A program made the position numbers and the translations under genes. DNA of 7,047 nt from a plasmid: the NCBI RefSeq assembly GCF_053078305.1, contig NZ_CP166877.1; one strand, 5' to 3'. Below the pieces are notes generated by a model. The model was not told the origin of the DNA. It saw only the letters and a list, made by a program, of their open reading frames with translations, and did no database searches. Shown in pieces: positions 1-7,047 of this stretch (the stretch's first letter is position 1; every line of letters begins with the position of its first letter).

Positions 1-1599
1 ATGATAGTTAAGTTTCATGCCAGGGGAAAAGGCGGTGGCAGTGGTCCGGTTGATTACCTGCTGGGCCGGGAGCGTAACCGGGAAGGGGCGAGAGTTCTGC
101 GGGGTGCTCCCGAAGAGGTGCGGGAACTCATCGATGCCACGCCGTTTGCGAAAAAATACACCTCGGGGGTTCTGTCTTTTGCAGAGCAGACCCTGCCACC
201 GGGAGAGCGTGAAAGGGTGATGGAGAGCTTTGAGCGGGTACTGATGCCCGGTCTTGAAAAAAATCAGTACAGCATCCTGTGGGTGGAGCACCAGGACAAG
301 GGGCGTCTTGAGCTGAATTTTGTCATCCCGAATATGGAGCTGGCGAGCGGAAAACGGCTCCAGCCCTATTACGACCGGGCGGACCGTCCGCGAATCAATG
401 CCTGGCAGACACTGGTGAATCACCATTACGGGCTGCACGACCCGAACGCACCGGAGAACAGGCGGACACTTGTCACCCCGAATAATCTGCCGAAAGCGAA
501 ACAGGAGGCCGCAGAAGCGATTACGAGGGGACTGGAGGCTCTTTACCATGCCGGAGCGCTAAAAACGCGTCAGGATGTCACTGAGGCGCTTACAGCGGCA
601 GGTTTTGAGGTGGTGAGGACAACCAGGAGCAGTATCAGTATCGCCGACCCGGAGGGCGGGCGTAATCTCAGGCTGAAAGGGGCGCTGTATGAGCAATCTT
701 TTACAAATGGGGACAGACTTCGAGAAGAAACTGAAAGAGCGTGCCGTCTCTACAGAGAACATGCTGAACAGCGAGTTCAGGAAGCTCGAAGCGTCTGTAG
801 ACAGGGAACTGAACTTAAACGGGCAGAAAATCAGAGACGCTATCAGCGCACACACAGCAGCGGTGAAAGAACAACTGGAGACGCTGAACAGTGCCGTGAA
901 CGCGCAGTTCAGCGCCACAGAGAACGAACTGGCCCGGCGGCAGGAAGAGCTGCTCTGGAAGCTGATCAAAGGGCGGATACTGTACCCGTCGCTGACGGCG
1001 CTTTGCGTCACGGGCGGGATTTTTCTGGCGTCATGGGGGCTGATTCAGTGGCAGGAAAGCCGTATTGCGGCGAACATCCTGGCTATCAGGGACCAGGAAG
1101 AGACGCTGGCGAAACTCCGGGAAAAAACATGGGGTGTGACGTATCACGAGGGCAGGAACGGGAAATTTCTGGTGCTGCCGTCCGGGGTGAAGGGGGAAAA
1201 CAACTGGACGGTGGAGAAGAAGAACGCAGTAAGACTGGTCAGGGAGTAAGTGAGTATGACAGAGCTGGAAATGCACTTACTGAACGCCTTAGAGCAATTG
1301 CAGCAGGACTATACGCAGCGGCTGAAAGACTGGGAGAGCGCCTTCACGGATTTGCAGCATATGTTCGAGCTGACACGACAGGAGAACGGGCAACTGAGGG
1401 AACAGTGCGACGACTTGAGTCAGCAGGTGCAGAGATTAGCCGGGCAGGTGGACCGCTTGAGTCGGTTATTTATCACGAACAGCAGATAAGGGATGAACAG
1501 GAAAGGCAGGCACGCCTGGAACGGGAGCGTGCGCGGTCCTGGCATGAAGAGCAGGAACGGGAAGTACGGGTATGGCGTGGCCCGTCAATGGGGATGTGA
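1..1599 (+). CDS. mbeA: Mobilization relaxase MbeA (MobA-like, HEN-type relaxase of ColE1-family plasmids)
   Basis: 532-aa ORF starting at base 1. The N-terminus MIVKFHARGKGGGSGPVDYLLGRE matches the ColE1 MbeA N-terminus as I recall it, including the catalytic Tyr in VDYLLG. A His/Glu/Asn motif (WVEHQDKGRLELNFV) fits the HEN relaxase signature. The C-terminal third is low-complexity Arg/Glu-rich and hosts the nested mbeB/mbeD frames. Confidence 0.9.
   Translation: MIVKFHARGKGGGSGPVDYLLGRERNREGARVLRGAPEEVRELIDATPFAKKYTSGVLSFAEQTLPPGERERVMESFERVLMPGLEKNQYSILWVEHQDKGRLELNFVIPNMELASGKRLQPYYDRADRPRINAWQTLVNHHYGLHDPNAPENRRTLVTPNNLPKAKQEAAEAITRGLEALYHAGALKTRQDVTEALTAAGFEVVRTTRSSISIADPEGGRNLRLKGALYEQSFTNGDRLREETERACRLYREHAEQRVQEARSVCRQGTELKRAENQRRYQRTHSSGERTTGDAEQCRERAVQRHRERTGPAAGRAALEADQRADTVPVADGALRHGRDFSGVMGADSVAGKPYCGEHPGYQGPGRDAGETPGKNMGCDVSRGQEREISGAAVRGEGGKQLDGGEEERSKTGQGVSEYDRAGNALTERLRAIAAGLYAAAERLGERLHGFAAYVRADTTGERATEGTVRRLESAGAEISRAGGPLESVIYHEQQIRDEQERQARLERERARSWHEEQEREVRVWRGPSMGM
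689..1249 (+). CDS. mbeB: Mobilization protein MbeB, nested inside mbeA in the +2 frame
   Basis: 186-aa ORF wholly inside mbeA in another frame, which is the classic ColE1 mob arrangement. ATG start is preceded by AAGGGG about 8 nt upstream. The product has a hydrophobic segment (LTALCVTGGIFLASWGLI) consistent with a membrane-associated accessory protein. Confidence 0.75.
   Translation: MSNLLQMGTDFEKKLKERAVSTENMLNSEFRKLEASVDRELNLNGQKIRDAISAHTAAVKEQLETLNSAVNAQFSATENELARRQEELLWKLIKGRILYPSLTALCVTGGIFLASWGLIQWQESRIAANILAIRDQEETLAKLREKTWGVTYHEGRNGKFLVLPSGVKGENNWTVEKKNAVRLVRE
1256..1489 (+). CDS. mbeD: Mobilization protein MbeD (reported entry-exclusion role in ColE1), nested in the mbeA 3' region
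   Basis: Same +2 frame as mbeB, directly after the mbeB stop (TAA 1247-1249). The ORF track starts it at GTG 1250, but ATG 1256 has the better Shine-Dalgarno spacing (GGGAG 1242-1246, 9-nt spacer), so the start is placed at 1256 (alternative 1250). Product is a 77-79 aa coiled-coil-like protein (MTELEMHLLNALEQLQQDYTQRL...). Confidence 0.7.
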   Translation: MTELEMHLLNALEQLQQDYTQRLKDWESAFTDLQHMFELTRQENGQLREQCDDLSQQVQRLAGQVDRLSRLFITNSR

Positions 1600-1759
1600 C
1601 GGTGAGTTGTTCCGGGAGGTTGCCAGATGGTACCGGAACGCGTTAAAAACGCATCCGGGCGCGATTCTGGCGTGTCGTTTTTGTTGCTGTGTTTTGCCTC
1701 TTTGCCAGATCGCGCTCATTCCTCAGCCTCATCCCGCGATGTCTGCGTATGTCATCAAC

Positions 1760-1939
1760 TGAAAAGATGGAAAAAAAACAGTGTCATGAGGTTTACGCAG
1801 GCAAAACCAGCGTTATTCACATGGCTGAATAGCTATGCATACGGTTAAAATTTATCAGGTGCGATCGCGGCAGCTTTTCGGGTGGTTTGTTGCCATTTTT
1901 ACCTGTCTGCTGCCGTGATCGCGATGAACGCGTTTCAGC
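1760..1939 (+). promoter_or_regulatory. cer accessory sequences (PepA/ArgR-binding region), with a candidate ARG box near 1825-1841
   Basis: Lies immediately upstream of the XerC-side of the cer core, as in ColE1 cer. TGAATAGCTATGCAT at about 1826-1840 resembles the ARG-box consensus (TGAAT-4-ATTCA) and sits about 115 bp upstream of the crossover region. Extent of the accessory region is approximate. Confidence 0.5.
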
Positions 1940-1969
1940 GGTGCGTACAATTAAGGGATTATGGTAAAT
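1940..1969 (+). other. cer-type XerC/XerD recombination core (multimer resolution site)
   Basis: GGTGCGTACAA-TTAAGGGA-TTATGGTAAAT at 1940-1969 matches the ColE1 cer core as I remember it: 11-bp XerC arm, 8-bp central region, 11-bp XerD arm. Confidence 0.85.
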
Positions 1970-1972
1970 CCC

Positions 1973-2395
1973 TTACTGTCTGCCCTCGTATCCATCGAGA
2001 TAAACCGCAGAAATGGTGTCTGCCATTAGTTTCATTTTTTTCGGCGAAGGCATATCGCTGTTTGTGTATTTTCTGCCAGCAAAGGTTGTTGTGCTCCGGA
2101 GTGAGTGAAAAAATTTTTCTGAGTGGAATTCTTTTACACGTTGCTGTGCCGTTTCTGCTGATACTCCGGCTGCTTTGTCTTTCACCCCCATATCCCGGAA
2201 CTGCTGAAAGAACGGGAGCATCATACGTATGGTGTCTGCTTTCTGGGTGTAGAAGTTAGGATCAAATCCATCATCTGAAGCATAAACATAATGCCGGGTA
2301 TGTCGTTCCAGGCTGGTCTTTGGTGTGCATCCTGTAAGAGCTATTGTTGCTGTTATCAGAGGTATCAGAAGCAGCCTGGCAGCGGCAGATCTCAT
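1973..2395 (-). CDS. Putative outer-membrane lipoprotein of unknown function (possibly the Exc1-like ORF of ColE1-type plasmids)
   Basis: ORF 1973..2401 (-). The N-terminus has a signal peptide and lipobox (LLLIPLITATIALTG-C). Residue +2 after the Cys is Thr, not Asp, suggesting outer-membrane sorting. Start is placed at the second ATG (2395) because AAGGAG lies 6 nt upstream of it; the first ATG at 2401 abuts the SD. No catalytic motif recognised. Confidence 0.6.
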   Translation of the reverse strand: MRSAAARLLLIPLITATIALTGCTPKTSLERHTRHYVYASDDGFDPNFYTQKADTIRMMLPFFQQFRDMGVKDKAAGVSAETAQQRVKEFHSEKFFHSLRSTTTFAGRKYTNSDMPSPKKMKLMADTISAVYLDGYEGRQ

Positions 2396-2516
2396 AAACA
2401 TCTCCTTGCGTTTTTAATCTTGATACTCAGGGAGTTATATCTCCGAAGAGTATCTCTTATCATACGTCGGTTTACTCCCAATGTGATTTTATGGTCAATG
2501 AGTCAGGAATAATCCC

Positions 2517-2795
2517 GTGAAAAAATGTGTGCCAGTCCTGCTTTTTAGTGTTCTTTCTGCTTCGGTTGCCAGTCATGCGGACAGCAATGTTTTTCAACAA
2601 AAGGCCGAGAAGACAAAAAACGGCATTGTTGCGGATGTTAATGCCAGACAGAAAATGTTCAGTAACAGACTGAAGATACAACTTCAGATCGATGAGTTGA
2701 GAGCAGAGCTGGCTGGCACCAGAGATGCCCAAAAAAGAGAGGATTTGCGTAAAAAACTGGAGTCTCTGGAGCGGCAAAAGAAATCCTTACGCTGA
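2517..2795 (+). CDS. Small exported coiled-coil protein (Sec signal peptide), function unknown
   Basis: 92-aa ORF with GTG start at 2517 and AGGA 8 nt upstream. N-terminus MKKCVPVLLFSVLSASVASHA|DS is a typical signal peptide with an A-x-A-like cleavage site. The mature ~71-aa part is highly charged and heptad-like (LKIQLQIDELRAELAGTRDAQKREDLRKKLESLERQKK). The antisense ORF 2472..2777 looks non-protein-like, which favours this strand. Confidence 0.5.
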   Translation: MKKCVPVLLFSVLSASVASHADSNVFQQKAEKTKNGIVADVNARQKMFSNRLKIQLQIDELRAELAGTRDAQKREDLRKKLESLERQKKSLR

Positions 2796-3104
2796 TGGGG
2801 GCGTATTTTCCCCGGTTTCTTCCATAACCTTTTTACCGTTCAGATATTTACGGGCGAGGCGAATGCGTCTTGCCTGGTATACCGCTGAGTAAGCCTGGGT
2901 GGGATTCACACCATTACTGATTTCACTGACCACATGACGCTGATCAGCCAGTGTCAGCGTGTAAACCTGTTTCTGGATGAGGTCACGGGCTTTGTCATAC
3001 TCATATCCGGCAGCAACAAGGGTGTCGAGAAGTCGTTTGTCTGTTTTGTTCAGTTTATGGCGGGGTGATTTGCTCACATCGTTCTCCGTTTTTTCATGAT
3101 CCAA
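2787..3104 (-). CDS. Small basic protein, possibly DNA-binding (HTH-like), function unknown
   Basis: ORF-track ORF of 105 aa that begins at a TTG (RC of 3102-3104). A more plausible start is the in-frame GTG at 3077 (codon 10), with GGAG 6 nt upstream, giving a 96-aa product. The sequence is Lys/Arg-rich with a helix-turn-helix-like stretch (VVSEISNGVNPTQAYSAVYQARRIRLARKYL). Its 3' end overlaps the convergent 92-aa gene by 9 nt. Confidence 0.45.
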   Translation of the reverse strand: MDHEKTENDVSKSPRHKLNKTDKRLLDTLVAAGYEYDKARDLIQKQVYTLTLADQRHVVSEISNGVNPTQAYSAVYQARRIRLARKYLNGKKVMEETGENTPPSA

Positions 3105-3209
3105 CAGTTTTATATCTCATCCTGATTTGCTCCGGTGTTCTGTTTCGACGTTCTCAATGCCTGCCTCCCCATAGTGTGATCCTTATTGCAAAAATGAAAA
3201 TCCATGCTC

Positions 3210-3238
3210 TTGACACGGACAATGCTGAGTAGTAGGTT
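3210..3238 (+). promoter_or_regulatory. Colicin operon sigma70 promoter (-35 TTGACA 3210-3215; putative -10 TAGGTT 3233-3238)
   Basis: Consensus -35 TTGACA, a 17-bp spacer and an imperfect -10, immediately upstream of the tandem LexA boxes and about 80 bp upstream of the colicin ATG. This is the usual colicin promoter architecture. Confidence 0.7.
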
Positions 3239-3242
3239 TTCA

Positions 3243-3273
3243 CTGTACATAAAACCAGTGGTTATATGTACAG
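3243..3273 (+). promoter_or_regulatory. Tandem LexA (SOS) operators overlapping by 1 bp
   Basis: CTGTACATAAAACCAG (3243-3258) and GTGGTTATATGTACAG (3258-3273), each close to CTGT-N8-ACAG. The double overlapping SOS box is the hallmark of colicin promoters, and the arrangement is near-identical to the colicin E1 operator as I recall it. Confidence 0.85.
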
Positions 3274-3317
3274 TATGCTGTTTTTAATTTATTGTTTTAA
3301 TTATCAAAGAGGAATTT

Positions 3318-4964
3318 ATGGCTAAAGAACTAAGTGGATATGGCCCAACTGCTGGTGAGTCTATGGGGGGAACAGGGGCGAATCTGAATCAGCAAGGTGG
3401 AAATAATAATAGTAATAGTGGGGTTCACTGGGGTGGTGGCTCTGGGCATGGTAATAATGGTGGTCAGGGAAATTCAAATTCATCTGGTTCTACATCAACT
3501 GTGATGAAAACCGGTGAGTCATATCTGACTCCGTGGGGTGATGTTGTCATTAATAATGATGGCCTTCCGGTGATGAATGGTATTGTTATGACAGAAGAGA
3601 ATTCAACTCTGGTTGATAATCCATTTGGAGGGGTCTCCAGAGTTCTTAATTCTTTAATTAGTGATATGCCATCACTTTTTGCAGAAAGCTCAGGAAATAA
3701 CAACAATAACACTGCTTCAGTTAATACTGCACCAACGAATGCTCAGGTCAGTGATATGGATAAGAGTTCGAAGGTGGTGGGTAATGTAATTAATGAAAAA
3801 CAAAAGCAGAAGAATAAAATTGCTACACAGATTAGTGAAAAACAGAAGAAAATAGAGGAGATGAAAAAAGTATTCAAGCATCATTCTTATCATGGTATCA
3901 CTGATCTTGAGAGGGATGTTGATGAGTTGCAAAAAAAATCAAATCAGCTTGATGCAGATATTAGCAAACTTAATTCTTATAAAAATACATTGCAAAGTAA
4001 AATTGGTGATGTGAATAAACAGAAGGAAGCTGAAGAAAAGGCTCGTGAAAATGCAGAGGTCGCTGAACATGAAACTCTTAATGAAGAGAAACAGGCGGTG
4101 GTGGAAGCAGAGAAGCGTTTAGATGAGGCGAAAGCTGAACTGGCGAAGGCTGAAAGTGATGTACAGAGTAAGCAAGCTACTGTTTCCAGAGTTGCAGGAG
4201 AGCTTGAAAACGCTCAGAAGAGTGTTGACGTGAAGGTCACCGGATTTCCGGGATGGCGTGACGTTCAGAAAAAACTACAGCGTCAGCTTGAAGCTAAGCA
4301 GGCTGAGTACTCCGCAGTTGAAAATGAACTTAAGAATGCTGTTAGTTTCAGGGATGGCAAGGCTGCTGAGGTAAAAGAGGCAGAGCAGAAATTAAAAGAA
4401 GCTCAGGATGCTCTTGAAAAGAGCCAGATAAAAGATGCTGTTGATACTATGGTTGGGTTTTATCAATATATAACCGAACAATATGGAGAAAAATACGCAA
4501 AAATTGCTCAGGATTTAGCGGAAAAGTCTAAAGGAAAGAAAATTCAAGGTGTTGATGAAGCTCTGGCAGCATTTGAAAAGTATAAAAATGTACTGGATAA
4601 GAAATTCAGTAAAGTTGATCGGGATGCTATTTTTAATGCGTTAGAGTCTGTTACTTATGATGAGTGGGCAAAGCATCTAGAAAAGATCTCTAAGGCTCTT
4701 AAGGTTACCGGATATTTGTCTTTCGGGAATGATGTATGGGATGGTACCCGGAAGGGATTAGAAACAGGAGACTGGAGGCCTTTATTTGTCACTCTGGAGA
4801 AGAGTGCGGTAGATTTCGGAGTGGCAAAAATTGTGGCATTAATGTTCAGTTTTATTGCTGGTGCTCCTCTTGGTTTCTGGGGGATTGCTATTATCACTGG
4901 TATTGTTTCTTCTTACATAGGGGATGATGAGCTGAACAAACTTAATGAGTTGTTAGGGATTTAA
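3318..4964 (+). CDS. cka: Pore-forming colicin of the E1/K/5/10 family; length and organisation best fit colicin K
   Basis: 548-aa ORF with AAGAGG SD 5 nt upstream. It has the three expected parts: a Gly/Asn/Ser-rich low-complexity N-terminal translocation domain, a long Lys/Glu-rich coiled-coil central region, and a C-terminal channel domain closely resembling the colicin E1 pore domain as I recall it ([59 protein letters not shown], then the hydrophobic hairpin [33 protein letters not shown]). Colicin K is 548 aa; the specific K assignment is from memory. Confidence 0.92.
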
Positions 4965-5251
4965 TATCTCTTTAGAGTGTAATATATGAAACTTGGCAAT
5001 CCTACTGGGATTGCCATTGCCAGGTAAAGTAAATAAAAAAGGTTGTATGAGTACCAAGGCTCTTTTTTTATGTTTGTCGTCTTTTGTATAAAAGAAAATA
5101 TCGTTAGTTTTGAATATGGGTATAGTAATACATGTATTGATGCAAAAAATATAAAAGCTAGAGATATATCATTGTTATAGTTAAGTGTTAAATATAATAA
5201 CCATGGCAGAAGTGATTCAGGTAAATTATGTAGGTAGTATTTTAGATACAT
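4961..5251 (-). CDS. cki: Colicin immunity protein (pore-former type, integral membrane)
   Basis: 96-aa ORF convergent with the colicin gene. It is very hydrophobic and AT-rich with about three predicted transmembrane segments ([12 protein letters not shown]..., [16 protein letters not shown]..., [23 protein letters not shown]). Position and opposite orientation between colicin and lysis genes are typical of pore-forming colicin immunity genes. Its stop overlaps the colicin stop in TTAA (4961-4964). Confidence 0.85.
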
Positions 5252-5275
5252 AATTTTTTCTTTTGTTGGAGGTGT

Positions 5276-5407
5276 ATGAAAATAGTGCTTTTTCTAATTA
5301 CAATATTATCCTTGTCAGGATGTCAAGCAAACTATATTCGTGATGTACAAGGAGGAACCGTTGCGCCATCTTCGTCTTCTGAACTGACGGGGATCGCGGT
5401 TCAGTAG
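5276..5407 (+). CDS. ckl: Colicin lysis (release) lipoprotein
   Basis: Not in the ORF track because it is short. Manual translation gives [43 protein letters not shown] (43 aa): signal peptide, lipobox LSG-C, and the conserved mature motif [11 protein letters not shown] typical of colicin lysis proteins. GGAGG lies just upstream. Confidence 0.85.
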
Positions 5408-5415
5408 AAAAGATC

Positions 5416-5441
5416 AAAGGATCTCTTGAGATCCTTTTTTT
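5416..5441 (+). terminator. Rho-independent terminator-like hairpin plus T-run at the end of the colicin operon
   Basis: AAAGGATCTC-TT-GAGATCCTTT inverted repeat followed by TTTTTTT, 9 nt after the lysis gene stop. The same motif occurs at the equivalent place in pMB1/pBR322. It overlaps the RNAII promoter -35. Confidence 0.5.
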
Positions 5442-5454
5442 CTGCGCGTAATCT
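5426..5454 (+). promoter_or_regulatory. RNAII (replication primer) promoter: -35 TTGAGA (5426-5431), -10 TAATCT (5449-5454)
   Basis: Matches the ColE1/pMB1 RNAII promoter context (TTGAGATCCTTTTTTTCTGCGCGTAATCTGCTGC), with a 17-bp spacer. Confidence 0.7.
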
Positions 5455-5467
5455 GCTGCCTGTAAAC

Positions 5468-5573
5468 GAAAAAACCCGCCTTGTGGCGGGTTCTTCCGTC
5501 CGATCAGAAGTCTTCGACCTCTTCTAATCGGCGGTGGTAACTGGCTATCGCAGAGCACAGGTACCTAAATTGT
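5468..5573 (-). ncRNA. RNAI antisense copy-number control RNA
   Basis: The reverse complement reads ACAAUUUAGGUACCUGUGCUCUGCGAUAGCCAGUUACC..CCGAUUAGAAGAGGUCGAAGACUUCUGAUCGG..AACCCGCCACAAGGCGGGUUUUUU. This gives three stem-loops and a terminal hairpin plus U-run, homologous in layout to pMB1 RNAI but with different stem and loop sequences. Confidence 0.8.
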
Positions 5574-5579
5574 CCTTCT

Positions 5580-5609
5580 AGTGTAGTCAAAATCAGACTG
5601 ATACTTCAA
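5580..5609 (-). promoter_or_regulatory. RNAI promoter (minus strand: -35 TTGAAG = RC of 5604-5609; -10 TACACT = RC of 5580-5585)
   Basis: Conserved with the pMB1 RNAI promoter (TTGAAG ... CTACACTAGAAGGACA) and correctly spaced from the inferred RNAI 5' end at about 5573. Confidence 0.65.
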
Positions 5610-6039
5610 GAACTCTGTTACCAACTTATAAATCTCGCTCTGCTAACCCGGTTACCAATGGCTGCTGCCAGTGGCGTTAAGTCGTGTCTTTTCCGGGTTG
5701 GACCCAAGAGAACAGTTACCGGAGAAGGCGCAGCAGTCGGGCTGAACGGGGGGTTCCTGCATACAGCCCGGCCCGGAGCGAACTGCCTAAGTCGCCCCGA
5801 GATACCAGAAGACGTGAGCTATGAGAAAGCGCCACGTGTCCCGCAAGGGAGAAAGGCGGAAAAGGTATCCGGTAATCGATATGGCGGGAACGTGGGGGCG
5901 CAGGAGGGAGCGATTCACCGGAAACGGTGATGATCTTTAAGCCACGTCGGGTTTCGCCACCGCTGGCGGATTTCATGGTTGAGCCGTAAGGCTCCCACAG
6001 ATGCACCGAAAAAGTGTCTGTTTTGTGAAGTCCGTCAGG

Positions 6040-6100
6040 GGGGCGGAGCCTATGGAAAAAGCGCCTCCGGCGCGGCCTTTTCCGGGGTTTTTGTTTTTTG
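6040..6100 (+). other. oriV: RNAII/DNA transition region of the ColE1-type origin
   Basis: GGGGGGCGGAGCCTATGGAAAAAGCGCC...GGCCTTTTCCGG is homologous to the pMB1 region containing the RNase H processing and DNA-synthesis start site. The exact switch point is not determinable from sequence alone. Confidence 0.5.
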
Positions 6101-6249
6101 CGCACATGTTCTTTCCCGGGTTATCCCCGGATTCTGTGGATAACGGGGTCACCGCCTTTGAGAAAGGAGAGTCCGCTCGCCGCAGCCGAACGACCGAGCG
6201 CAGCGAGTCAGTGAGCGAGGAAGCGGAAGAGCACCGGAAGCGGCATTTT

Positions 6250-6420
6250 CTCCTTACGCATCTGTGCGGCATTTCACACCCGACATGGCGCATTTTTCAT
6301 ACTATCTACACTGATGCCACATGATTAAGCCAGTATACACTCCGCTATCGCTACGTGACTGGGTCATGGCTGCGCCCCGACACCCGCTAAAACCCGCTGA
6401 CGCGCCCTGACGGGCTTGTC
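6250..6420 (-). other. oriT / bom region with a conserved ColE1-type nick site (minus strand CTGG|CTTA; nick between 6330 and 6329)
   Basis: TAAGCCAGTATACACTCCGCTATCGCTACGTGACTGGGTCATGGCTGCGCCCCGACACCCGC...GACGGGCTTGTCTGCTCCCGGCATCCG is near-identical to the pBR322 bom segment as recalled. The nick position is placed by homology to the ColE1 nic site as I remember it. Confidence 0.6.
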
Positions 6421-6475
6421 TGCTCCCGGCATCCGGTCACAGGCAAGCTGTGACCGTCTCCGGGAGCTGCATGTG

Positions 6476-6667
6476 TCAGAGGTTTTCACCGTCATCCCCG
6501 AAGCGTGCGAGGCAGCTGCGGTAAAGCTCGTCGGCGTGGTCGTGAAGCGCTTCGCAGATGTCAGCCTGGTCGTCGGCGTCCAGTTCATTCAGTTTTTCCA
6601 GCAGGGTCAGCGTCTGGCTTCTGATGAAGCGGGCCATGTTAAGGGCGGTTTTTTCCTGTTTAGTCAC
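6476..6667 (-). CDS. rop: Rop/Rom (RNA one modulator; RNAI-RNAII kissing-complex stabiliser)
   Basis: 63 codons ending ...TKQEKTALNMARFIRSQTLTLLEKLNELDADDQADICEALHDHADELYRSCLARFGDDGENL, near-identical to ColE1/pBR322 Rop. The start appears to be GTG (RC of 6665-6667) at the position of the ATG in pBR322. The ORF-track entry 6476..6907 is an artefactual N-terminal extension. Confidence 0.9.
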   Translation of the reverse strand: MTKQEKTALNMARFIRSQTLTLLEKLNELDADDQADICEALHDHADELYRSCLARFGDDGENL

Positions 6668-6710
6668 AGTTCTGTTTCTCCATGTGTGGGGAGTCTGTCG
6701 GAGGTTTTTA

Positions 6711-7047
6711 ATGATACCGGTGAAACGCGAAAGAATGCTCACGATACGGGTCACGGATGAGGAACATGCGCGGCTGCTGGCACGTTGTGAGGGAAAACAA
6801 CTTGCGTCATGGATGCGTAAGGTCTGCCTGGGGGCACCGCCATCGAAAACGTCAGGCCTTCCGACACTGGCACCGCCGCTGTTGCGCCAGTTCGCTTCGG
6901 TCGGCAATAACCTGAATCAGATAGCCCGGAAGATAAACAGCGGACAGTGGTCGGGGCATGACCGGGTTCATGTGGTGGCTGCACTGATGGCCATCGGGCG
7001 TGAACTGAGTGAGCTGAGGGATGAGGTCCGTAAACAGGGAGAACGGG
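6711..7047 (+). CDS. mbeC: Mobilization protein MbeC (oriT-binding accessory protein), 3'-truncated by the window end
   Basis: Manual translation from ATG 6711 (GGAGG 6700-6704, 6-nt spacer) gives MIPVKRERMLTIRVTDEEHARLLARCEGKQLASWMRKVCLGAPPSKTSGLPTLAPPLLRQFASVGNNLNQIARKINSGQWSGHDRVHVVAALMAIGRELSELRDEVRKQGER... with no stop before the window end. It resembles ColE1 MbeC as recalled (..LAPPLLRQ...GNNLNQ.ARK.NSGQW...). An alternative start is ATG 6735 (MLTIRV...). Confidence 0.8.
   Translation, partial: MIPVKRERMLTIRVTDEEHARLLARCEGKQLASWMRKVCLGAPPSKTSGLPTLAPPLLRQFASVGNNLNQIARKINSGQWSGHDRVHVVAALMAIGRELSELRDEVRKQGER

Follow-up and report, generated by a model that had tools for sequence, protein, structure and literature searches.

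The window analysed here, a 7,047-bp stretch of DNA from contig NZ_CP166877.1, is a complete small ColE1-type mobilizable plasmid with a colicin K-type operon, and its colicin, immunity and lysis genes (3318–5407) are markedly AT-rich. This raises the question of whether these genes were acquired as a cassette by a GC-richer ColE1-type backbone, as an earlier note on this DNA had proposed, with junctions near the LexA-box promoter on the left and near the RNAII promoter/terminator on the right.

The window is 99.3% identical to NZ_CP046541.1 over its full length. From its RNA and protein content, the replicon is assigned to the ColE1-like (RNAI/RNAII-primed) mobilizable plasmids. RNAI, which overlaps the 5′ end of RNAII, was matched at 53.4 bits (gathering score 47, E = 6.6e-8), and Pfam recognised the core proteins as Rop (1.2e-35), Relaxase (6.9e-6), MbeB_N (7.2e-24) and MbeD_MobD (1e-35); MobC is annotated in a near-identical RefSeq record. 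As in ColE1-like plasmids, Rop is accompanied by a MOBP (HEN) relaxase, MbeA, with MbeB, MbeC and MbeD, and by a cer site whose XerC/XerD core (GCGGTGCGTACAATTAAGGGATTATGGTAAAT, 1938–1969) is a 32-nt exact match to ColE1. The operon has the layout of the group A pore-forming colicins, namely a C-terminal pore-forming domain (PF01024 at residues 364–545), an immunity gene that lies between the colicin and lysis genes but is read from the other strand, and a terminator downstream of the lysis lipoprotein gene. AT-rich toxin genes within a GC-rich replication and transfer core are an ordinary, previously described plasmid build. The features are as follows.

1–1599, plus strand: mbeA, relaxase (GC 0.564, Pfam Relaxase), with mbeB and mbeD nested in it
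689–1249, plus strand: mbeB (Pfam MbeB_N)
1250–1489, plus strand: mbeD (Pfam MbeD_MobD)
1–1747, plus strand: second part of the GC-rich core, with mbeA, mbeB and mbeD
1748–1969, plus strand: cer multimer-resolution site (GC 0.437), left end of the proposed exchangeable arc
1940–1969: cer core (XerC arm, 8-nt central region at 1951–1958, XerD arm), preceded by accessory sequences
1973–2401, minus strand: exc2, Exc2-family entry-exclusion lipoprotein (GC 0.457, GC3 0.43, NCBIfam NF033828, E = 3.9e-53)
2517–2795, plus strand: orf92, hypothetical secreted protein (GC 0.444)
2787–3104, minus strand (2787–3077 in RefSeq): orf105, hypothetical protein (GC 0.484)
3171–3317, plus strand: colicin SOS promoter, 5′ UTR and ribosome-binding site (GC 0.313)
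3318–4964, plus strand: cka, pore-forming colicin of 548 aa (GC 0.402, GC3 0.32, Pfam PF01024, E = 8.8e-32, and PF22348)
4961–5251, minus strand: cki-family immunity gene, 96 aa (GC 0.282, Pfam PF17500 (CKI), E = 5.6e-48)
5276–5407, plus strand: ckl, lysis lipoprotein of 43 aa (GC 0.417, Pfam PF02402, E = 1.6e-23, lipobox LSGC)
5416–5444, plus strand: operon terminator from a terminator scan, a hairpin (5416–5437) and then a T-run; right end of the proposed exchangeable arc
from about 5465, plus strand: RNAII
5466–5572, minus strand: RNAI, antisense copy-number regulator (Rfam RF00106)
5636–7047: first part of the GC-rich core, with RNAII/ori, rop and mbeC, continuing through 1–1747
6476–6667, minus strand: rop (Pfam Rop, GC 0.568)
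from 6735, wrapping to position 11: mbeC (ORF-based, GC 0.58–0.59)

The exc2 gene is also annotated in the near-identical RefSeq record, and neither orf92 nor orf105 gave a family match in Pfam or NCBIfam. The stretch 2400–3317 accompanies K/10/S4-type operons in the comparators, and orf92 alone is also found in one IncK plasmid. The terminator hairpin lies directly upstream of the RNAII start. RNAI belongs to the core by function, yet it is positioned in the low-GC compositional block.

The compositional contrast that had been read by eye between the colicin genes and mob, ori and rop is real. The GC of 3318–5407 is 0.386, compared with 0.524 for the other 4957 nt (chi2 111.7, p = 4e-26), and the minimum-GC arc of 2090 nt on the circular molecule, 3249–5338 (GC 0.375), lies only 69 nt off the proposed interval. 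The AT-richest feature is cki, and the ori region (5561–6475) has a GC of 0.565. The supposed AT-rich spacer at 4965–5300 is in fact occupied by cki, followed after 24 nt by the first part of ckl. Within the operon, the GC of cka is uneven (0.30–0.49 per 100 nt), and in ckl the signal-peptide part is AT-rich while the 3′ part (5321–5407) has a GC of 0.49.

Permutation-calibrated segmentation, in which the change-points exceeded all 300 permutations, divides the molecule into three tiers: the core (5636 through the origin to 1747, GC 0.571), the cer-exc2-orf92-orf105 region (1748–3170, 0.455) and the colicin operon (3171–5635, 0.386). The rest of the plasmid is thus GC-richer but not uniformly so. 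A significant shift exists, but its main steps do not lie at the operon: the left one is at 1747 (LLR 89), the right one at about 5635, some 230 nt past the ckl stop, with none at 5407, and the step near the LexA-box promoter, at 3170, is genuine yet minor (LLR 8.7, p about 0.003). The composition shift therefore does not coincide with the module edges, as it would for a cassette defined by its anomaly. It also overshoots the homology junctions described below (about 1950 and about 5410–5475) by roughly 160–230 nt per side. Because the cer accessory and RNAI/RNAII 5′ regions blur the boundaries, composition alone cannot place the junctions.

The junctions were located by detailed comparison with only about a dozen plasmids. 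Homology to other plasmids begins or ends at the cer core, in a region that is 90–97% identical to ColE1. In pRHB42-C04_3, an arc of about 1938–5475 is 97–100% identical to the window and the remainder 72–92% (backbone about 80%), and the mismatch density switches at 1937/1938 and again at about 5475–5482, where identity falls from about 99% to about 80%. Plasmid pTA109-2 shows the reverse situation, with 99.2% identity over 1–1975 and 93.7% over 5321–7045, and colicin D in between. Restriction-modification and cryptic-cargo plasmids lose homology right after the cer core (1969/1970), while in cargo-free ColE1-like plasmids the match resumes at 5408–5420, directly past the ckl stop. Finally, a 130-kb IncF plasmid carries the equivalent of 1917–3455 plus a cki-like/lysis remnant (4942–5432), with a different colicin and cui between them; on the outside, this copy stops at the cer core on one side and within the terminator hairpin, at about 5432, on the other.

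In every informative comparison, the left junction is therefore the cer XerCD core, about 1.3 kb left of the LexA promoter, and the exchangeable block consequently also carries exc2, orf92 and orf105. On the right, the proposed junction near the RNAII promoter/terminator was borne out by the positions in the cargo-free plasmids, the IncF copy and pRHB42-C04_3. The same module in different backbones and different modules in the same backbone are both seen for this larger unit of about 1938–5475. This supports an exchangeable unit whose left end would be the cer XerCD core, instead of the LexA boxes, and whose right end would be the ckl terminator/RNAII promoter. Comparison with plasmids carrying other colicins thus upholds modular exchange as the earlier note expected, but moves its left edge to cer. 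The orf92 gene is 98–99% conserved in the K, 10 and S4 plasmids and in the IncF copy. The same ColE1 backbones are known with bacteriocin, resistance or no cargo, and recombination has been suggested to occur at oriT and cer sites (PMC8683028).

The region at the LexA boxes looks different in kind from such a junction. A putative sigma-70-type promoter with a −35 TTGACA at 3210–3215 is followed downstream by a candidate LexA box (CTGTACATAAAACCAG, 3243–3258, a pattern match) and by a candidate second, overlapping box (GTGGTTATATGTACAG, 3258–3273), which was read by eye, ends in ACAG and has two left-half mismatches. A promoter-like consensus scan over 3100–5700 gave 3 matches versus 6.4 in shuffles and missed the known SOS promoter. 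The promoter region matches ColE1 (3177–3319, 81%), a colicin D plasmid (3237–3312, 87%) and Klebsiella bacteriocin plasmids (about 3242–3314). Two stretches are conserved even where the colicin operons are unrelated in other respects, the promoter region (3177/3237–3317) and the 3′ part of ckl (5309/5321–5407), and these look like shared ends ("handles") of the operons rather than backbone junctions.

These observations bear directly on the proposal that 3318–5407 is a single acquired cassette with junctions at the LexA promoter and the RNAII promoter/terminator, its AT-richness being foreign. Several results agree with it: the lowest-GC arc nearly equals the operon, a significant change-point lies at 3170, homology to ColE1 is absent over 2464–3176 and resumes at the promoter at 3177, and the right junction is found at 5408–5475. 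However, no comparator breaks at the LexA-box promoter against backbone sequence, the 2400–3317 stretch travels with K/10/S4-type operons, and whole-arc transfers end at cer, while exchanges within the operon break in cka and cki. Furthermore, the promoter and lysis gene are conserved among unrelated colicins, and a low GC3 is common to all colicins compared and to non-colicin cargo. We therefore regard the single cassette as improbable; an exchangeable block on a ColE1-type core does exist, but it is larger than proposed and has breakpoints within cka and cki.

We consider it likely, instead, that the plasmid consists of two compartments, a GC-rich core and an AT-rich arc that is exchanged whole, reshuffled inside and AT-biased as a class. 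The core (RNAII/RNAI ori, rop, mbeC-A-B-D and cer; about 0.55–0.57 GC) would be common to thousands of ColE1-like plasmids, and the arc, from about 1950 to about 5410–5475 with exc2, orf92, orf105 and the SOS-controlled cka-cki-ckl, would be swapped as a whole between such cores. While the junction positions are read directly from the alignments, the recombination route is what we infer: most likely XerCD-mediated or homologous recombination at cer on the left, and, on the right, homologous recombination within the conserved sequence that spans the lysis gene, the terminator and the RNAII promoter. The cer site normally acts within one molecule only. RecA-dependent homologous recombination could explain the cer junction equally well, and the present data fit it and Xer recombination alike. 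In either case, what moves between ColE1-type plasmids would be the entire arc between cer and the RNAII promoter, and the example illustrates that the eye can pick out a genuine compositional island and yet misplace its edges.

The AT bias itself is not particular to this operon. GC3 is 0.31–0.34 in colicins E1, K, 10, S4, D and a U-like colicin (IncF), which share little or no DNA homology, and the immunity genes of ColE1, Col10, ColS4, ColK-K235, ColD and the IncF colicin have a GC of 0.26–0.36. In all arcs examined, the cargo has a GC of 0.354–0.445 compared with 0.552–0.560 in the cores, non-colicin cargo being equally AT-rich. Since unrelated colicins and non-colicin cargo share it, low GC alone is no proof of acquisition from a foreign donor. 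For the pore-end/cki segment (4600–5320), all matches among complete E. coli genomes were on plasmids and none was chromosomal.

The contrast is largest at third codon positions, and the expected difference in codon usage was recovered at synonymous sites: GC3 is 0.32 in cka, 0.26 in cki and 0.34 in ckl, compared with 0.72 in mbeB, 0.73 in mbeD, 0.70 in rop and 0.60 in mbeC. Under the synonymous preferences of the core, the same amino acids would give the module a GC3 of 0.64 versus the observed 0.29, and amino-acid composition is thereby ruled out as the cause of the GC contrast. For the eight classical rare E. coli codons, no clear module-specific enrichment was seen in cka (53 per 1000; core genes 16–118); the values for cki (156 per 1000) and ckl (140 per 1000) are higher, but these genes are short.

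The same test weighs on a second alternative, in which the module is AT-rich through its Lys/Asn/Ile/Leu/Tyr-rich proteins and the core GC-rich through overlapping mob frames and the structured RNAII/RNAI. In its favour, both cki and cka have a low second-position GC (0.27 and 0.35), mbeA overlaps mbeB and mbeD, and the core, at 0.55–0.57, lies above both the E. coli average of about 0.51 and the Enterobacterales mean of 53.0%. Mean GC in Enterobacterales is 57.7% for the relaxase, 52.8% for the ori and 53.0% for host genomes (PMC8683028). The biggest difference is nevertheless synonymous, which refutes such constraint as the sole cause; rop overlaps no gene and still has a GC3 of 0.70, and the comparisons show physical exchange of the arc. 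Constraint may contribute to the first- and second-position differences, but as the explanation of the contrast it is very unlikely. That chance alone produced the difference in so short a sequence, an idea for which only the small size of some features speaks, has a negligible probability given the chi2 value, the permutations and the recurrence of the same GC pattern in six other plasmids.

The AT-richness would thus be a stable class-wide trait of colicin and immunity genes and of ColE1 cargo, residing mainly at synonymous sites, and not evidence of recent import. As its cause, we infer most likely that these genes have long resided in the mobile accessory gene pool, where mutation is AT-biased and their codon use is selected only weakly because expression is rare and comes in bursts. 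It is less likely that they were recently imported into the present plasmid from a low-GC donor. Possible sources of the low GC3 are mutation bias with weak selection, regulatory rare codons, H-NS targeting or an ancient low-GC donor.

Inside the arc, the operon itself is a patchwork rather than one cassette. Compared with colicin 10, S4 and classical K plasmids, intragenic breakpoints lie in cka at 3327, 3455, 4067 and about 4651, and in cki at about 5130. The first part of cka (3318–3455) is common to colicin S4, 3456–4066 is K-specific, 4067–4650 is common to colicin 10 at about 84%, and 4651–4964 is colicin 10-like (91–94%). In protein alignment, residues 1–445 are identical to the K235 Cka at 443 of 445 positions, which covers the K translocation and Tsx-binding parts. 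Residues 446–548 are 94% identical to colicin 10 and 75% to K, this colicin 10-like pore end carrying six substitutions. The immunity protein, named by RefSeq just 'Cki family', shares 79% identity with Cti and 69% with Cki, and its N-terminal 40 residues match neither. The immunity-specificity determinants of colicin K proper, a K-type pore end with K-type immunity, are thus not those of the window, and judged from these alignments the colicin is a K/10-like chimera.

Homologous recombination at the handles (SOS promoter/5′ UTR to the ATG, and the lysis gene) and at domain borders would have further reshuffled the operon, leaving a colicin whose translocation/receptor part is K-type and whose pore end is colicin 10-like and was inherited along with the corresponding portion of the immunity gene. 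We tentatively raise the possibility of a third immunity specificity in the K/5/10 family, combining K-like entry (Tsx, Tol) with a 10-like pore end on an arc that moves as a block. Should the immunity give no cross-protection with K or 10, joint recombination of pore end and immunity gene would have formed a natural new colicin type. For colicin typing, the chimera and its rare immunity allele offer a modest lead; the significance of the overall finding otherwise lies mainly in correct annotation.

Among known systems is module exchange bounded by Xer sites or oriT in small ColE1-like plasmids, for which PMC8683028 cites Tran et al. 2012 and Zakharova et al. 2002. The likeness is that homology starts and stops at the cer core, a role of Xer in the window being suggested by junction position only; the difference is the cargo, qnrB19 and restriction-modification there and a colicin arc here. 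ColE1 (NC_001371.1) shares the architecture (ori-rop-mbe-cer-exc-colicin-imm on the opposite strand-lysis), with DNA identity of about 80% in mob, promoter and lysis gene through rop and an identical cer core. It also shows the same contrast (cea GC3 0.31 and imm GC 0.29 versus GC3 0.59–0.76 in rop, mbeB and mbeD). However, its colicin is E1, of which the pore domain alone aligns (71%), and it has exc1 where the window has orf92/orf105, without homology over 2464–3176.

The classical colicin K plasmid, pColK-K235 (NC_006881.1), which Rijavec et al. reportedly described in 2007 as a ColE1-like mosaic, has the same gene order and is 99–100% identical over 1–4600 (mob, cer, exc2, orf92, orf105, promoter and cka codons 1 to about 430). 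Its operon is likewise AT-rich (cka 0.394, cki 0.261), and it contains an IS2 insertion that is absent from the window. In contrast, identity is only 67–89% over 4650–5300 (pore end, cki) and 62–81% over the RNAI/RNAII-ori region (5500–6300), in both of which the window is closer to the colicin 10 plasmid. With backbones about 99% identical to the window, the colicin 10 plasmid has 3328–4066 replaced and the colicin S4 plasmid 3456–5415, the Tsx-binding and pore region being common to K and 10 from 4067. Domain reassortment among colicins K, 5, 10 and S4 was reportedly described by Pilsl and Braun in 1995 and Pilsl et al. in 1999. The receptor and import assignments of this group are confirmed (PMC9558359), and reassortment of colicin domains is textbook 'diversifying recombination' (PMC5821083). 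The combination in the window, the N-terminal 445 residues of K with a 10-like last 103 and an immunity protein of the Cki family distinct from both Cki and Cti, is less common, and plasmid D10-B carries the reciprocal chimera.

The window is a complete circular plasmid of 7,047 bases that is already present in RefSeq; it is 99.3% identical to E. coli pFHI_NMBU_10_02 (NZ_CP046541.1) with zero indels and an origin rotated by 1,495 nt. The 49 substitutions between the two are partly clustered (13 in 6283-6319 and 4 in 1908-1932), and these clusters may be small recombination patches. The following features were located:

1-1599, mbeA
689-1249, mbeB, nested in mbeA
1250-1489, mbeD, nested in mbeA
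1938-1969, 32-nt core of the cer site, identical to the ColE1 cer core
1973-2401, minus strand, exc2, entry-exclusion lipoprotein gene (NCBIfam, 3.9e-53)
2517-2795, plus strand, hypothetical ORF (orf92)
2787-3104, minus strand, hypothetical ORF (orf105)
~3243-3273, SOS promoter with LexA boxes, predicted from sequence
3318-4964, cka, colicin gene (Pfam colicin pore domain)
4961-5251, minus strand, cki, immunity gene (Pfam CKI, 5.6e-48)
5276-5407, ckl, lysis gene (Pfam lysis protein)
5416-5437, terminator hairpin
5466-5572, minus strand, RNAI (Rfam)
6476-6667, minus strand, rop
6735 past the window end to its start, mbeC

GC skew is positive on the plus strand nearly throughout (whole-plasmid skew +0.165, with a monotonic rise of the cumulative skew), which fits unidirectional ColE1-type replication with the plus strand leading and bearing most genes. 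The products of orf92 (92 aa) and orf105 (96-105 aa) matched no Pfam or NCBIfam family; the former has a signal-peptide-like N-terminus, and the latter is encoded on the opposite strand. Both sit where ColE1 has exc1. As a pair they were seen only beside K/10/S4-type colicin operons, while orf92 without orf105 is also carried by an IncK plasmid of 99.8 kb, adjoining a recombinase gene.

The earlier note had described an AT-rich colicin module in a GC-richer remainder, and this was borne out. GC content was 0.386 in 3318-5407 versus 0.524 in the rest of the plasmid (chi2 111.7, p = 4e-26), and the minimum-GC arc of 2,090 nt on the circle (3249-5338) nearly coincided with this interval. GC at third codon positions (GC3) was 0.32, 0.26 and 0.34 in cka, cki and ckl, versus 0.72, 0.73, 0.70 and 0.60 in mbeB, mbeD, rop and mbeC; for the same amino acids, the synonymous preferences of the core (the ori-rop-mbe-cer backbone) predict a module GC3 of 0.64, whereas 0.29 was observed. 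The contrast is real, strong and concentrated at synonymous sites. What had been taken for a spacer at 4965-5300 is cki on the opposite strand. Permutation-calibrated segmentation, which defined the tiers and step positions, yielded three tiers instead of the proposed two: 0.571 from 5636 across the window end to 1747, 0.455 in 1748-3170 and 0.386 in 3171-5635. On the left, the large step lies at 1747 and the one near the promoter (3170) is present but small; the right step, at about 5635, falls 230 nt beyond ckl rather than at its end. The GC edges (1747, 5635) overshoot the homology junctions by about 160-230 nt, and two segments that belong functionally to the core are not GC-rich: the cer accessory region (GC 0.437) and the RNAII-promoter/RNAI stretch (0.439).

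Junctions were mapped against plasmids having one compartment in common with the window and not the other. pTA109-2, with the same core and other cargo, matches at 99.2% over 1-1975 and at 93.7% over 5321-7045; its middle carries colicin D with its immunity gene, where only the LexA-box promoter (3237-3312) aligns, and in the junction alignment identity breaks off at the cer core's central region. Homology to a restriction-modification plasmid, a cryptic Salmonella plasmid and hundreds of cargo-free ColE1-like plasmids ends at the same base, 1969/1970, right after the cer core, and the cargo-free matches restart at 5408-5420, directly 3' of the ckl stop codon. pRHB42-C04_3 (CP056942.1), with the same cargo on another core, is 97-100% identical from ~1938 to ~5475 but drops to 72-92% in mob, ori and rop; its mismatch density switches at 1937/1938 (cer core start) and at ~5475-5482 (RNAII 5' end). 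The sole large difference in its otherwise ~99% identical arc is an insert of about 200 bases (its 4133-4338) between exc2 and orf92.

These restarts and this switch agree with the right junction as originally placed, at the RNAII promoter/terminator, whereas the left junction, assigned to the LexA-box promoter, was about 1.3 kb off: the comparators break at the cer core. By these comparisons and the IncF copy described next, the exchangeable unit is the entire arc, bounded by the cer core on one side and the operon terminator/RNAII promoter on the other, and it holds exc2, orf92, orf105 and the colicin operon. Exchange on a ColE1-type core is supported, but not with the operon as its unit.

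A 130-kb IncF plasmid (IncFIA/FIB, NZ_CP129349.1, 8516-12496) carries the equivalent of 1917-3455 and a cki-like/lysis remnant (4942-5432, including an extra cki-like gene), with a different colicin and cui between them. The outer ends of this copy lie at the cer core and within the terminator hairpin. Metabolic genes and a Phd/Doc toxin-antitoxin pair border the copy, and neither end has an IS element; it looks like a ColE1 arc captured through the cer core.

Beyond the observed composition steps, homology junctions and chimeric structure, we infer that the arc would be exchanged by recombination, with cer as the left site and the conserved stretch of lysis gene, terminator and RNAII promoter as the right one. 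Every comparator is compatible with a crossover in the cer core's central region (1951-1958), and work cited in PMC8683028 has put forward recombination at Xer and oriT sites in related small plasmids. Plain RecA-dependent recombination in the highly conserved cer region is a possible alternative source of the left junction.

Within the operon, homology to the colicin 10 plasmid, whose backbone is 99% identical, ends at 3327, ten bases inside cka, and restarts at 4067 at ~84%; that to the colicin S4 plasmid reaches 3455 and then ends. ColE1 aligned in the operon region only over the promoter (3177-3319, 81%), the pore domain (4425-4900, 71%) and from 5309, in ckl, onward (80%). Classical pColK-K235 is 99-100% identical up to ~4650. 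Sites informative between the K and colicin 10 types are of the colicin 10 type in 4654-4936 and 5019-5126, mixed in 5138-5314, K-like in 5317-5468, and mixed again in 5482-5569; from 5570 to 6172, through the ori, they follow the colicin 10 plasmid. Colicin residues 1-445 are those of colicin K (443/445), while residues 446-548 are 94% identical to colicin 10 and 75% to K. The immunity protein shares 79% identity with Cti, the colicin 10-type immunity protein, and 69% with Cki, but over the first ~40 residues it matches neither of them. The colicin is a natural chimera of a K front and a colicin 10-like pore end, and together with the unusual immunity protein (pore end and cki, 4651-5251) it may represent a distinct immunity type. 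Plasmid D10-B (NZ_CP010159.1) is the reciprocal chimera, in which a colicin 10 front is joined to a K pore end and cki. The window's allele of pore end plus immunity gene is rare: among 5,426 complete E. coli genomes one carries it at >=99%, as do 2 PLSDB plasmids. Such reshuffling would proceed by homologous recombination at the conserved promoter/5' UTR, the lysis gene and domain borders, the process known for colicins as "diversifying recombination" (PMC5821083).

The RNAI/RNAII-ori region (5482-6172) shares only 62-81% identity with pColK-K235; its identity with the colicin 10 plasmid is 95-100% from 5570 on, and the RNAI portion (5482-5569) matches neither cleanly. This region suggests a copy-control/incompatibility allele different from that of the classical colicin K plasmid.

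The same GC contrast was found in ColE1, colicin 10, colicin S4, pColK-K235, colicin D and the IncF-borne colicin. The module's GC3 shift was confirmed, but low GC alone does not mark the module as foreign, low GC3 being common to all those colicin genes (0.31-0.34). Immunity-gene GC was 0.26-0.33 for pore colicins and 0.36 for colicin D, and the compared colicin and immunity genes have little or no DNA homology among them. Non-colicin cargo arcs were as AT-rich or more (restriction-modification 0.354, cryptic 0.373; cores 0.552-0.560). A survey gave GC contents of 57.7% for ColE1 relaxases, 52.8% for ori and 53.0% for Enterobacterales genomes (PMC8683028); relative to the host, therefore, the AT-rich cargo is the outlier. 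Because it is similar across deeply diverged colicins, low GC3 looks like a stable equilibrium of colicin genes as a class and of plasmid cargo at large, and not like the state of newly imported DNA still to drift toward host composition. Its cause may plausibly be AT-biased mutation with weak codon selection, the latter because cka induction is confined to ~3% of cells, a figure cited in PMC4675545; a regulatory role and an ancient low-GC source are also plausible.

The original observation is correct but ordinary, and its interpretation is partly wrong. ColE1-type architecture and domain shuffling among K/5/10/S4 colicins are both already established, as are modules bounded by Xer sites and the turnover of cargo on ColE1 backbones that stay constant.
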